This document shows, in pieces, positions 690-4,718 of a DNA stretch of 9,928 nt (positions are counted from its first letter, which is position 1; each line of letters begins with the position of its first letter). Under the pieces are notes generated by a model. That model was not told the DNA's origin. It saw nothing but the letters and a program-made list of their open reading frames with translations, and made no database searches. The stretch is from a virus (taxonomy: Duplodnaviria > Heunggongvirae > Uroviricota > Caudoviricetes): IMG/VR virus record IMGVR_UViG_2698536618_000006, positions 1 through 9,928 of that record; one strand, 5' to 3'. The translations under genes and the position numbers were made by a program.

Positions 690-916
690 TTTCTTTCCTC
701 TGTTATGCCATCACCCGCGCTCACCTGGACAGTATGCAGCGGAGACTGAAGCGCCGCAATGCAGGCTTGCCGTGTTGTGAGGTAAGGAGATTTTGGCTTG
801 GTTGGATCTTTACGTGTTGCCTGTAGGCGGCCTGTTCGTATCCAGTTGGTGGCGGTTGGTCTGGATATCTTAAGAAACTGACAGGCCTCATCGAGTGTGA
901 GGCTGTATGATTCCAT
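545..916 (-). CDS. xis: Excisionase / AlpA-like HTH DNA-binding protein
   Basis: Start chosen at the internal ATG 916-914 ([33 protein letters not shown]...), preceded by AGAGG. The N-terminal ~70 aa resemble AlpA/Xis winged-helix proteins. The ORF runs 123 aa and overlaps int by about 145 nt, which is long for an excisionase. Confidence 0.6.
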
Positions 917-1166
917 GGTTACCTCTGCTTTTTGAACGCATGTCACGTAACTTCTTAATGTGTTCTGCCGTTTCGATCTCTTCTGCTATCCGATCTGCAT
1001 CAGCTTTATTCACAGGTTCAAAGTCATGATTAAAGCGGAACATGCTGGCGATACATGTTCTGCCTTTTCGGATGTAGTGAACTTTGTTGTGGGTAGAACG
1101 CAGGATTTTGCAGGGAGTGCCGTGGTGGTCGACGTACCAGGTGTTAGGAAAAATGATTCTGAACAT
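888..1166 (-). CDS. Hypothetical phage protein (92 aa)
   Basis: ATG at 1166-1164 with GAGGTG Shine-Dalgarno 7 nt upstream. Same orientation as the flanking early-left genes. No family recognised. Confidence 0.45.
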   Translation of the reverse strand: MFRIIFPNTWYVDHHGTPCKILRSTHNKVHYIRKGRTCIASMFRFNHDFEPVNKADADRIAEEIETAEHIKKLRDMRSKSRGNHGIIQPHTR

Positions 1167-1213
1167 TTTTACACCTCAGTTGGACGATGTTGAAATTTGC
1201 TGCTTTGAGGCCA

Positions 1214-1432
1214 TCACAGTCCCCATTGTTTGTTCTTAAGTTCGATCTCCTCCTGGCAACTTGCACAAGTCCGACAACCCTGAACAGCCAGGCGTCTTCG
1301 CTCATCTATCGGATCGCCACACTCACAACAATGAGTTGCGGATACAGTCTGGTAGTTCTGACGACGCATTTTTATTGCTGTATTGCGCTGTAATTCTTCG
1401 ATTTCTGATGCTGAATCAATGATGTCTGCCAT
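1214..1432 (-). CDS. TraR/DksA-family C4 zinc-finger protein (72 aa)
   Basis: ATG at 1432-1430. C-x2-C ... C-x2-C motif (CCECGDPIDERRRLAVQGCRTCASC) typical of phage TraR/DksA-like proteins. Confidence 0.7.
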   Translation of the reverse strand: MADIIDSASEIEELQRNTAIKMRRQNYQTVSATHCCECGDPIDERRRLAVQGCRTCASCQEEIELKNKQWGL

Positions 1433-1484
1433 CTTCCATTAATCCCTGAATTGTTGGTTAATACGCTTGAGGATGAATGCGAAC

Positions 1485-1508
1485 AATAAAAAAGGAGCCT
1501 GTAGCTCC
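1485..1508 (-). terminator. Candidate intrinsic terminator on the minus strand
   Basis: Hairpin GGAGC-ctgta-GCTCC (1494-1508) followed on the minus strand by a TTTTTTATT run (plus-strand A-run 1485-1493). Confidence 0.35.
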
Positions 1509-1530
1509 CTGATGATTTTGCTTTTCATGT

Positions 1531-1812
1531 TCACCGTTCCTTAAAGACGCCGTTTAACATGCCGATCGCCAGGCTTAAATGAGTCGGTGTGAATCCCATC
1601 AGCGTTACCGTTTCGCGGTGCTTCTTCAGTACGCTACGGCAAATGTCATCGACGTTTTTATCCGGAAACTGCTGTCTGGCTTTTTTGATTTCAGAATTAG
1701 CCTGACGGGCAATGCTGCGAAGGGCGTTTTCCTGCTGAGGTGTCATTGAACAAGTCCCATATCGGCAAGCATAAGCACACAGAATATGAAGCCCGCTGCC
1801 AGAAAAATGCAT
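1531..1812 (-). CDS. Hypothetical phage protein; start uncertain (ATG at 1812 or 1746)
   Basis: The track ORF starts at a TTG (1845). The first ATG is at 1812-1810, 11 nt after the methyltransferase stop; another ATG lies at 1746. Neither has a strong Shine-Dalgarno. No family recognised. Confidence 0.45.
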   Translation of the reverse strand: MHFSGSGLHILCAYACRYGTCSMTPQQENALRSIARQANSEIKKARQQFPDKNVDDICRSVLKKHRETVTLMGFTPTHLSLAIGMLNGVFKER

Positions 1813-1822
1813 TCCGTGGTTG

Positions 1823-2380
1823 TCATGCAGCCTCCCGACGGGCAAGAATCCTTGAGCCGAACGCCATCAACTCTCCACGATCAACGGTCGTAAAGTGGCA
1901 GTGTGTACGGGGGTATGGGTGCCAGATAATGAGCATCGAGCCTTTATTATTTCCACTGACGGGTTTCTCAGTGAGTGGGTTAATAAATGCCAGTCGTCCT
2001 GCCGTGATGAATCTGACCTCACTGGCGGTTTGTATCGCTTCATGAAACCATCCGACAGATGTGTCAGCAGGCAATAACATTACACATCCCACACTACTGA
2101 ATTTGTTTTCAGTGGCTGCCTTTTTCACAAAAGGGGAAATATTGCTGTATGGTGGATTCAACCAGACATAACCAGAGGCATATCCCATTGCTTCAGGCCA
2201 TGAAGTGGTTAATGTGTTCTGCTCCTGTGAGATAAAAAGCCGACATAGTCGGTTTTTTTCGCTGGCGGCAGCATCAAGTTGAAAAACGAACTCTGCATTA
2301 AGCGCAGCAAAAATCTCTGGTGGTGTGCGCCAGCTGTCGCGATGTTCGGCAGGAGTATTGCTTCCGGTGAAATCAGTCAT
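1823..2380 (-). CDS. Phage Dam-type DNA N6-adenine methyltransferase (orphan, 185 aa)
   Basis: ATG at 2380-2378 with a GGGGG Shine-Dalgarno-like run upstream. Contains the NPPY catalytic motif (VWLNPPYSN) of N6-adenine/N4-cytosine methyltransferases. Size and context fit the small phage Dam family. No restriction endonuclease gene is adjacent. Confidence 0.75.
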   Translation of the reverse strand: MTDFTGSNTPAEHRDSWRTPPEIFAALNAEFVFQLDAAASEKNRLCRLFISQEQNTLTTSWPEAMGYASGYVWLNPPYSNISPFVKKAATENKFSSVGCVMLLPADTSVGWFHEAIQTASEVRFITAGRLAFINPLTEKPVSGNNKGSMLIIWHPYPRTHCHFTTVDRGELMAFGSRILARREAA

Positions 2381-2534
2381 ACAGCCCCCGTTTATTATTT
2401 ATCGCCTCAGCCAGCCGCTGTGCTTTCAGTGGATTTCTGATAACAGAAAGGCCGGGAAATACCCAGCCTCGCTTTGTAACGGAGTAGATGAAAGTGATCG
2501 CGCCTACCCGGATATTATCGTGAGGATGCTTCAT
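2373..2534 (-). CDS. Small ORF (53 aa), translationally coupled to exo; resembles lambda orf60a by position and sequence
   Basis: Its ATG (2534-2532) overlaps the exo stop as ATGA, and its stop overlaps the methyltransferase start. Translation [53 protein letters not shown]. Below the ORF-track size cutoff. Confidence 0.4.
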
Positions 2535-3211
2535 CGCCATTGCTCCCCAAATACAAAACCAATTTCAGCCAGTGCCACGTCCATTTTTTCGATGAACTCC
2601 GGCACCATCTCGTCAAAATTCGCCATGTACTTTTCATTCCGCTCAATCACGACATAATGCAGGCCTTCACGCTTCATACGCGGGTCATAGTTGGCAAAGT
2701 ACCAGGCATCTTTTCGCGTCACCCACATGCTGTACTGCACCTGGGCCATGTAAGCCGATTTTATGGCCTCGAAACCACCGAGCCGGAACTTCATGAAATC
2801 CCGGGAGGTAAACGGGCATTTCAGTTCAAGGCCGTTGCCGTCACTGCATAAACCATCGGGAGAGCAGGCGGTGCGCATACTTTCGTCGCGATAGATGATC
2901 GGGGATTCAGTAACATTCACGCCGGAAGTGAATTCAAACAGGGTTCTGGCGTCGTTCTCGTACTGTTTTCCCCAGGCCAGCGCCTTAGCATTAACTTCCG
3001 GAGCCACACCGGTGCAAACCTCAGCCAGCAGGGTGTGGAAGTAGGACATTTTCATGTCAGGCCACTTTTTTCCTGAGCGGGGCTTTGCTATCACGTTGTG
3101 AACTTCTGAAGCGGTGATGACGCCGAGCCGTAATTTGTGCCATGCATCATCCCCCTGTTCGACAGCTCTCACGTCGATCCCGGTACGCTGCAGGATAATG
3201 TCCGGTGTCAT
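2531..3211 (-). CDS. exo: Lambda-type exonuclease (Red-alpha), 226 aa
   Basis: Full-length [43 protein letters not shown]... matches lambda Exo nearly residue for residue from memory. Its ATG overlaps the bet stop (ATGA). Confidence 0.95.
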
Positions 3212-4513: not shown

Positions 4514-4646
4514 TCTTTGGGACTCCTGGCTGATTAAGTATGTCGATAAGGCGTTTCCATCCGTCACGTAATTTACGGGTGATTCGTTCAAGTAAAGATT
4601 CGGAAGGGCAGCCAGCAACAGGCCACCCTGCAATGGCATATTGCAT
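4482..4646 (-). CDS. cIII: CIII, FtsH (HflB) protease inhibitor, 54 aa
   Basis: Internal ATG at 4646-4644 preceded by AAGGAG. Translation [54 protein letters not shown] matches lambda CIII. Confidence 0.9.
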   Translation of the reverse strand: MQYAIAGWPVAGCPSESLLERITRKLRDGWKRLIDILNQPGVPKNGSNTYGYPD

Positions 4647-4718
4647 GGTGTGCTCCTTATTTATACATAACGAAAAACGCCTCGAGTGAAGCGTTATTGG
4701 TATGCGGTAAAACCGCAC

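Follow-up and report, generated by a model that had tools for sequence, protein, structure and literature searches.

[quoted passage not shown] Its orthologous genes in lambda and Phi24B are transcribed from pL early in lytic growth, and its small ORFs other than orf73 shift the balance between lysis and lysogeny (PMC8614690; PMC4195576). A conserved core of orf60a, orf63, orf61, orf73 and ea22 has been described (PMC8614690). Experiments have established that the product of lambda orf73 binds RNA polymerase and inhibits rRNA and ribosomal-protein promoters (PMC9239242), and roles have been described for its DxxDxA motif and for a pair of arginines in the globular domain (PMC9239242; PMC8614690). 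Two further systems bear on the locus considered here. The phage Dam enzymes of the PF05869/TIGR01712 family (M.EcoVT2Dam, T1 Dam, HP1 Dam) are small, single-domain, orphan N6-adenine methyltransferases, of which the VT-2 and HP1 Dam-like genes and M.EcoVT2Dam are listed as Dam-type, without assays displayed (PMC7556043; PMC6602927). RgdR (ECs1581) is encoded by a prophage and regulates both motility and LEE type III secretion; an RGD motif at residues 20-22 is important for its activity (PMC3378721).

The locus lies in a window of 9,928 nucleotides, the whole stretch of DNA analysed, in which genes follow the lambda order from int to O and the lambda cIII thermoregulator RNA is present. Positions 888-2540 very probably constitute the exo-xis region of a lambda-like Escherichia coli prophage of the argU-integrating type (intD-type integrase, DLP12 site). 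Gene map and lambda alignment agree in placing this block between exo and xis in pL-operon orientation, the same position and strand as in lambda, Phi24B and 933W. All of its genes run in the minus-strand direction, as do N, cIII, kil, gam, bet and exo, and most neighbours are chained through overlapping stop and start codons. The block would form the distal portion of the pL operon, the leftward early one. Its minus-strand order, from 5' to 3', is orf60a, a Dam-family methyltransferase gene, a 27-aa ORF, orf61, a 31-aa micro-ORF lying over the hairpin t2, orf73, a DUF4222 gene and xis. An earlier note, made from the bare sequence, had described four ORFs and an orf60a-like small ORF, all of which are indeed there, the four on the minus strand at 888-1166, 1214-1432, 1531-1845 and 1823-2380 and the orf60a-like one at 2373-2540, and its description of the block as accessory is supported, exo-xis being a non-essential accessory region. 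Rfam and ARAGORN searches of the block returned no matches.

The comparison with lambda can be drawn to the nucleotide. Positions 1237-1826, spanning orf73, the intergenic hairpin, orf61 and the 27-aa ORF, are 95.9% identical to lambda 30418-31008 (blastn), and the window from 2378 onward is 97.1% identical to lambda from 31194 onward; the homology stops exactly at 1826/1827 and 2377/2378. Judged from this alignment, the block holds only two non-lambda pieces, a PF05869 methyltransferase gene in place of orf63 and a DUF4222 gene in place of ea22/ea8.5/orf55. The former replaces orf63 exactly, from start codon through stop codon, and the final three codons of the orf60a homologue are part of the swapped cassette. 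[quoted passage not shown] The earlier note was thus right that orf63 and ea22/ea8.5 (and, it can be added, orf55) had given way to other genes, but it counted orf61 among the losses when it is retained, and its view that the orf60a-like ORF alone resembles lambda is refuted by the 1237-1826 stretch. Its two ORFs of unknown kind are placed by profile searches in the DUF4222 and orf61 (PHROG 303) families. A broader reading in the same vein, in which the exo-xis genes of lambda gave way to a novel module with an accessory or anti-restriction role, orf60a alone staying lambda-like and the TraR-like gene being separately regulated beyond a terminator, draws on the fact that the methyltransferase and DUF4222 genes have no lambda counterpart. 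We consider it highly unlikely, since identity to lambda is 96% across orf73, orf61, the two micro-ORFs and the hairpin, and since this combination of alleles occurs frequently.

That frequency is apparent from related genomes. Escherichia phage PhiR30_1 (PV340558.1) matches the 1653-bp block at 99.8% identity, and the argU prophage of E. coli S10 (NZ_CP010229.1), which sits beside tRNA-Arg and intD, matches it at 99.9%; gene order and annotation are the same in both. Part of the block is carried by 3447 of 5426 complete E. coli genomes and at least 80% of it by 232, while the methyltransferase cassette is present at full length in 244 of the 5426. Over 122 non-identical viral loci the orf63 slot is never empty, being filled by orf63 in 109 and by a methyltransferase of the present type in 13, and a DUF4222 gene follows orf73, directly or behind ea22, in 42 of 124 loci. 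Both replacements are therefore common alleles, and with orf63 and ea22 replaced so recurrently the ‘core’ of the literature is not universal. The block is, in short, already known, a common and already annotated combination of alleles of a region that has been studied in its own right.

At the exo-proximal end, the orf60a homologue (DUF1317; 55 aa, 2373-2540, minus strand) scores 109.9 bits against Pfam PF07026 and, from 2378, matches lambda DNA at 97% identity. Within it, on the minus strand at 2448-2470, a terminator-like hairpin detected by a consensus scan, of 9 pairs, 6 of them G-C, lies at what we take to be the position of lambda tL3. Its sequence is that published for lambda and Phi24B as t1, a predicted terminator (PMC4195576).

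A second terminator-like hairpin with a T-run occupies 1484-1510 on the minus strand, upstream of the TraR-like gene, where the earlier note had marked a candidate terminator. The G+C-rich hairpin spans 1492-1510, with 7-8 pairs plus TTTTTTATT, the T-run tail extends to about 1484, and the fold reaches -19 kcal/mol (z = -3.0). Covariation was uninformative, the stem being nearly invariant in 193 related sequences and so leaving nothing to covary. N-modified pL transcripts are expected to pass t2. A consensus scan, the fold and identity to the t2 sequence in Table 4 of the Phi24B and lambda study, itself a predicted terminator, agree in making the element a predicted terminator, and in lambda mRNA levels measured by RT-qPCR drop beyond it (PMC4195576). 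A real hairpin with a T-run and the fall in lambda mRNA beyond it are also what the novel-module reading would cite for separate regulation of orf73. Against this, a consensus scan of 700-2700 detected no sigma-70-like promoter site on the minus strand, and the published promoter p1 is purely a BPROM prediction (PMC4195576) whose -10 element shows a single-base change in this copy (TTTTATTGT versus TTTTATTAT). Separate regulation of orf73 is a prediction.

The gene beyond t2 (1214-1432, minus strand; 72 aa) encodes a TraR/DksA-family C4 zinc-finger protein. Its product matches Pfam zf-dskA_traR PF01258 at 37.3 bits (cut-off 24.9) and PHROG 54 at 3e-26, falls slightly below the cut-off of TIGR02419 (54.8 versus 59.7 bits), and carries the finger named in the earlier note in the form CxxC-17-CxxC (C35/C38 and C56/C59). 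Because the gene lies in the stretch at 96% identity to lambda, it is the orthologue of lambda orf73. The two proteins are 86% identical, with ten substitutions, mainly at residues 25-30 and in the C-terminal tail, and 72 versus 73 aa. The features of lambda Orf73 and F-plasmid TraR (PMC9239242) are all present: D3-I-I-D6-S-A8 (DxxDxA) and E44-R-R-R47-L48 (ExxRL, with the arginine pair of the globular domain), both identical to lambda Orf73, the C4 finger and the two extra cysteines of lambda. By this resemblance, which also favours the earlier proposal of a secondary-channel binder, the protein would bind in the RNA polymerase secondary channel and inhibit rRNA promoters.

Between t2 and the methyltransferase gene, the ORF at 1531-1845 (minus strand) allows three lengths: 104 aa at its maximum, 93 aa from ATG 1812, and 71 aa from ATG 1746. 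The 71-aa form (1531-1746), matched by PHROG 303 at 7e-43 and called by PGAP, is most likely the true orf61 product. The alignment at 96% DNA identity contains one gap, so that the reading frame of orf61 in lambda is shifted with respect to the present one; the gene is truncated in lambda and intact here. The family is narrow, essentially confined to E. coli, and residues 24-93 have been modelled as homeodomain-like (PMC8614690). Annotations of orf61 frequently give 93 aa from ATG 1812. Seemingly ‘divergent’ homologues at 51-53% identity proved to be double-frameshift variants, and the name ‘ZapA’, attached to some homologues at NCBI, was rejected at 16.1 bits against a Pfam ZapA threshold of 23.8 (E = 0.014). 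NCBIfam has no models for orf61, orf60a, DUF4222 or the 27-aa ORF.

The 27-aa hydrophobic ORF, MTTTECIFLAAGFIFCVLMLADMGLVQ, occupies 1743-1826 on the minus strand and encodes a peptide identical to that of lambda. It has an ATGA overlap at each end and a GGAGG upstream, is predicted by gene callers on 981 contigs, and is open in 201 of 201 related sequences, one copy having a stop at the last codon (26 aa). Distinct substitutions are synonymous in its own frame in 13 of 24 cases and in the frame of an orf61 extension in 4 of 24. On the other side of orf61, a micro-ORF of 31 aa from a GTG that overlaps the orf61 stop (GTGA), or of 29 aa from ATG 1528, can be read at 1439-1534 (minus strand), overlapping the t2 hairpin. 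Its lambda homologue is MNMKSKIIRELQAPFLLFAFTLKRINQQFRD, and a 31-aa peptide has been reported from ribosome profiling of lambda (PMC8614690); equal length and place suggest that the micro-ORF is the counterpart of this lambda peptide, orf2313.

The cassette in the orf63 slot (1823-2380, minus strand) encodes a phage Dam-family N6-adenine DNA methyltransferase of 185 aa, matched by Pfam Dam PF05869 at 190.5 bits (cut-off 28.1) over profile positions 1-168 of 169 and by TIGR01712, an ‘equivalog’ model, at 165.6 bits (cut-off 97.05). Its best PADLOC matches are ‘orphan methyltransferase’ models, and PADLOC found no other defence-system match in the block. The enzyme has the NPPY motif (N75-P-P-Y78) named in the earlier note and is, as that note had held, an orphan: no endonuclease gene is adjacent, the flanks being orf60a/exo and the 27-aa ORF/orf61. 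It has in common with M.EcoVT2Dam, T1 Dam and HP1 Dam the W.TP, LD.AA and NPPYS motifs, and neither the catalytic N75-P-P-Y78 nor D36 (of LD.AA) varies between this enzyme and the Stx2-phage, HP1 and T1-like ones. Identities to the Stx2-phage, T1-like and HP1 enzymes are 49%, 42% and 36%. M.EcoVT2Dam is a nin-region product of the Stx2-phage pR operon, whereas the present gene belongs to the pL operon and sits in exo-xis. The closest relatives form a group of their own at 65-85% identity, from Enterobacteriaceae prophages and from Enterobacter and Erwinia phages, and homologues at 66-84% identity retain 59 invariant positions. An AF2 model (pTM 0.80) adopts a Rossmann-type methyltransferase fold whose best PDB matches are N6-adenine methyltransferases; a sequence search of solved structures gave a chance match only, with no close homologue.

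By analogy with the VT-2, HP1 and T1 relatives, for which GATC is reported, the target is probably GATC. The assignment is a weak one because identity to these relatives is just 36-49%, because solved structures include no close homologue, and because the Dam-type listings come without assays. The window contains 33 GATC sites where 38-50 are expected, an unremarkable count that is uninformative on specificity. Low identity, the separate grouping of the nearest relatives, the seeming redundancy of a GATC enzyme in a Dam-plus host and the existence, in other families, of prophage adenine methyltransferases with relaxed specificity (PMC7556043) would fit instead an enzyme of other or relaxed specificity, serving as a broad anti-restriction device against several host restriction systems. 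We regard this as unlikely, though with appreciable weight, given that family-wide conserved positions are kept, that the TIGR01712 ‘equivalog’ cut-off is reached, and that relatives from three distant PF05869 branches are all described as Dam-type, presumably with GATC as target. An active enzyme would be produced early in lytic growth through translational coupling to orf60a, and on the GATC reading its methylation would keep fast-replicating phage DNA fully methylated or see it methylated in hosts lacking Dam; an anti-restriction role is plausible.

The variable distal member of the region is the DUF4222 gene (888-1166, minus strand; 92 aa), which at its 3' end runs into the start of xis (ATG at 916). 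The protein matches Pfam DUF4222 over residues 3-53 at 69.4 bits (cut-off 27), and RgdR scores 82 bits with the same model. Like RgdR it is prophage-encoded, single-domain and within about 90-100 aa; unlike it, it has no RGD in the region aligned with residues 20-22, shares only 24% identity with RgdR, and is encoded in a lambdoid exo-xis region rather than beside the primase gene of a P4-like cryptic prophage. By sequence comparison, then, it belongs to the DUF4222 domain family and is not an RgdR orthologue. Its predicted structure is a Tudor-like barrel, and it may be a small adaptor with a regulatory role, sharing its domain family with RgdR.

The window differs from PhiR30_1 and S10-type prophages in that its integrase, at the left end, is interrupted at about position 102 by an IS3-family element, so that expression of the block in the source strain depends on whether inducibility remains. 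This truncation, and DLP12 remnants in B strains that retain 67% of the methyltransferase gene, might indicate a prophage in decay that carries the block as inert cargo, the genes of the block being no longer selected or expressed. We think this very unlikely: all block ORFs are intact, the block of the plaque-forming phage PhiR30_1 is 99.8% identical, synonymous changes are in excess in the 27-aa ORF, and the methyltransferase homologues keep their 59 invariant positions despite divergence.

As a catalogued combination of alleles, most of whose genes PGAP already names, the block is a finding of small weight. Its use for understanding the region is modest. A more speculative proposal, improbable in our estimation, would make DUF4222 proteins, RgdR included, Tudor-like RNA polymerase-binding modules and, linked with this, hold that the N-terminus of lambda and Stx orf61 is misannotated, the stretch really comprising a conserved 27-aa membrane peptide and a 71-aa homeodomain-like protein. 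Were the first part true, the block would encode two adjacent host-takeover factors aimed at RNA polymerase, Orf73 at the secondary channel and the DUF4222 protein at the beta lobe; were the second, published phenotypes of orf61 deletions could stem in part from loss of the 27-aa peptide. In any case the 27-aa ORF bears on the interpretation of orf61 experiments in lambda and Phi24B, and the modelled DUF4222 fold may offer a testable lead on the mechanism of RgdR, a regulator of EHEC type III secretion. Finally, the exo-xis ‘conserved core’ is open to change: a single slot takes, as gene-precise alternatives, either an orf63 or a Dam-family methyltransferase cassette, which suggests that either is tolerated at that point of the early operon.

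The accessory block between xis and exo (window positions 888-2540, minus strand) is the exo-xis region of a lambdoid phage, in an allele combination that is frequent and already present in public genomes and annotated. The minus-strand gene order in the window is lambda-like (int, xis, accessory block, exo, bet, gam, kil, cIII, ea10, ral) and continues past ral, as in lambda, with N, cI, cro, cII and O, and the lambda cIII thermoregulator RNA at 4601-4659 (minus strand, 88.5 bits) confirms an early-left operon of the lambda type. ORFs were listed in lambda 27700-32100, which was then aligned to the window: window 1237-1826 is 95.9% identical, with a single gap, to lambda 30418-31008, and the window from 2378 on is 97.1% identical to lambda from 31194 on. 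The former segment holds most of orf73 (the TraR/DksA-like zinc-finger gene), the intergenic hairpin, orf61 and a 27-aa ORF, so that the earlier note, although every sequence feature it listed is real (the ORFs, the NPPY motif, the zinc finger and the hairpin with its T-run), was wrong in placing the block instead of lambda orf61 and in regarding only the orf60a homologue (2373-2540, minus strand; 55 aa, DUF1317 by profile search) as lambda-like. Replacement does hold for orf63, ea22 and ea8.5. The non-lambda stretch 1827-2377 belongs to a 185-aa methyltransferase (1823-2380, minus strand) that takes the place of orf63, start codon through stop codon: the ATG of the methyltransferase lies at 2380 with lambda homology restarting at 2378, and its TGA at 1823-1825 with homology restarting at 1826, the A in the start codon of the following ORF. 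Left of 1237, the position of lambda ea22, ea8.5, orf55 and xis is taken by a gene for a 92-aa DUF4222 protein (888-1166, minus strand; profile search) and by a non-lambda xis. Farther left, the gene for the intD-type integrase is truncated near position 102, and window 1-102 matches an IS3-family (IS1203-like) element in place of integrase sequence, an interruption that probably leaves this prophage copy unable to excise by its own integrase.

The Pfam Dam (PF05869) and TIGR01712 profiles place the methyltransferase in the phage Dam family as a full-length member, with NPPY at residues 75-78. Identity to the enzyme encoded in the nin region of an O157 Stx2a phage is 49%, falling to 42% for the enzyme of a T1-like phage and to 36% for HP1 orf13, with the family-wide motifs conserved among them; nearer relatives (65-85% identity) abound in prophages of Enterobacteriaceae and in phages of Enterobacter and Erwinia. 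Some Enterobacter homologues, 72-73% identical (P0244, P0254, P0262, P0263, P0266, P0281), are predicted as single proteins with a further domain, a C5-cytosine methyltransferase (PF00145), which may reflect either genuine fusion or gene calls that run on. A structure-sequence search found no solved structure of a close homologue, and the best PDB matches of the predicted model (pTM 0.80) were N6-adenine methyltransferases (CAPAM/PCIF1, TrmM, MmeI), with TM-scores of only ~0.5. The Dam enzymes of T1, HP1 and VT-2 methylate GATC. Because the related VT-2, HP1 and M.EcoVT2Dam enzymes are given as Dam-type (PMC7556043, PMC6602927), GATC is the most likely target, a prediction we favour with moderate confidence; its frequency in the window is unremarkable. 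The proposed lack of a partner endonuclease is borne out, as no nuclease gene was found among the neighbours and the best PADLOC matches are orphan-methyltransferase models. Since the gene shares 8 nt with orf60a, and its stop codon lies across the start of the next ORF (ATGA), translational coupling inside the pL transcript would be the natural reading of its expression.

That next ORF (1743-1826, minus strand; lambda 30925-31008), between the methyltransferase and orf61, encodes a hydrophobic 27-aa peptide, MTTTECIFLAAGFIFCVLMLADMGLVQ, with ATGA overlaps at both ends and GGAGG upstream. The identical lambda peptide, absent from the reference annotation, lies in a different frame inside the annotated orf61 N-terminus. 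The 27-aa frame is open in 201 of 201 related sequences, one copy having a stop at the last codon. Synonymous changes make up 13 of 24 distinct substitutions in this frame versus 4 of 24 in that of the orf61 extension, as well as all nine of the substitutions found in at least five sequences (T3A and F8L aside), a pattern that favours the 27-aa frame but, because the counts are of sequences and not of independent events, is suggestive and not proof. Orf61 itself (PHROG 303, function unknown) spans at most 1531-1845 on the minus strand (104 aa); a start at one of the internal ATGs would yield 93 aa (1812) or 71 aa (1746). The former accounts for the ~93-aa protein described previously; the substitution pattern, the PGAP start at the downstream ATG (1746), the N-terminal variants of the family that start at this same methionine and the gene callers' predictions of the 27-aa peptide on 981 contigs together make a 71-aa protein more likely, preceded by a separate small predicted membrane peptide. 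The 93-aa form has been treated as full length and lambda Orf61 as truncated relative to Phi24B and 933W, and residues 24-93 of Phi24B Orf61, modelled as a homeodomain-like three-helix fold (PMC8614690), are exactly the 71-aa protein from the ATG at 1746. The single gap in the alignment means that the laboratory lambda orf61 (reference 30839-31024) is frameshifted, by one base, relative to window 1531-1746, and the same frameshift separates lambda from related viral loci retrieved with an intact 71-aa protein. Re-annotation of orf61 as a 27-aa peptide plus a 71-aa protein may be warranted. Many identical or near-identical 71-aa proteins carry the NCBI name "cell division protein ZapA", which looks like over-annotation, given a Pfam ZapA match below threshold (16.1 bits versus 23.8).

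The exo-xis literature describes transcription of this region from pL, early in lytic growth, and assigns pro-lytic behaviour to orf60a, orf63 and orf61 and pro-lysogenic behaviour to orf73 and ea22 (PMC8614690). Lambda and Phi24B have two predicted terminators, t1 and t2, and lambda mRNA levels are lower downstream of t2 (PMC4195576). On the minus strand of the window, the t1 sequence matches a hairpin at 2448-2470 and that of t2 matches 1492-1510, where consensus scan and folding place a hairpin with a T-run tailing to ~1484. A promoter overlapping the T-run was also predicted (PMC4195576), whose -10 element differs by one base in the window; scanning window 700-2700 gave no minus-strand promoter-like site. 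A 31-aa micro-ORF (1439-1534, minus strand) begins on the orf61 stop codon and passes through the t2 hairpin, with GTG as start versus ATG in lambda, and equals in length and place the 31-aa lambda peptide orf2313, detected by ribosome profiling (PMC8614690).

Characterised by experiment in lambda, orf73 is the best-understood component of the block: purified lambda Orf73 binds RNA polymerase, and the protein inhibits promoters of rRNA and ribosomal proteins, complements a dksA-null strain, slows host growth and raises phage yield ~four-fold (PMC9239242). The window gene (1214-1432, minus strand; 72 aa, zf-dskA_traR by profile search), a TraR homologue without annotation in lambda, encodes a protein 86% identical to lambda's that retains its DxxDxA, C4 finger (C35/C38 and C56/C59), two extra cysteines and ExxRL motif. 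HMM searches, suggested earlier for the two "unknown" ORFs, assigned them to PHROG 303 and DUF4222. In the AlphaFold model of the DUF4222 protein (pLDDT 85.6) a small barrel of five strands leads into a long helix, and Foldseek returned weak matches of SH3/PWWP/KOW type only. Homologues are confined to Enterobacteriaceae, sharing residues 1-80 and varying in the tail, which overlaps xis. The Pfam DUF4222 domain is present in RgdR (ECs1581, from the Sakai genome), a prophage-encoded protein that regulates LEE1/type III secretion as well as motility (PMC3378721, PMC10877973) and the one characterised DUF4222 protein found in the literature; the window protein is 24% identical to it and does not conserve its RGD motif. 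A speculative reading is that DUF4222/RgdR proteins bind RNA polymerase.

The block (1653 bp) shares 99.8% identity with isolated Escherichia phage PhiR30_1 and 99.9% with prophages of many E. coli strains, and in strain S10 the prophage bearing it adjoins tRNA-Arg and an integrase of the intD type. Of 5426 complete E. coli genomes, 3447 have some of the block and 232 have at least 80% of it; the methyltransferase cassette, counted by itself, is full length in 244 and truncated in the DLP12 prophage remnants of B strains. In BL21 and other B strains (for example NZ_CP060121.1 536209-536575), DLP12 keeps only the 3' two-thirds of the gene, and in related strains the fragment adjoins a gene for replication protein P, an arrangement suggestive of a deletion within the prophage. 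Among 122 non-identical IMG/VR loci that share orf61, the slot from orf60a to the 27-aa ORF is occupied by orf63 in 109 and by this methyltransferase in 13, with no empty slot and no other content, and DUF4222 follows orf73, directly or behind ea22, in 42 of 124 loci. These identities and allele counts identify the block, once taken for a novel replacement, as one frequent allele combination of a mosaic region, and its methyltransferase and DUF4222 protein are ordinary members of known families with putative roles here.
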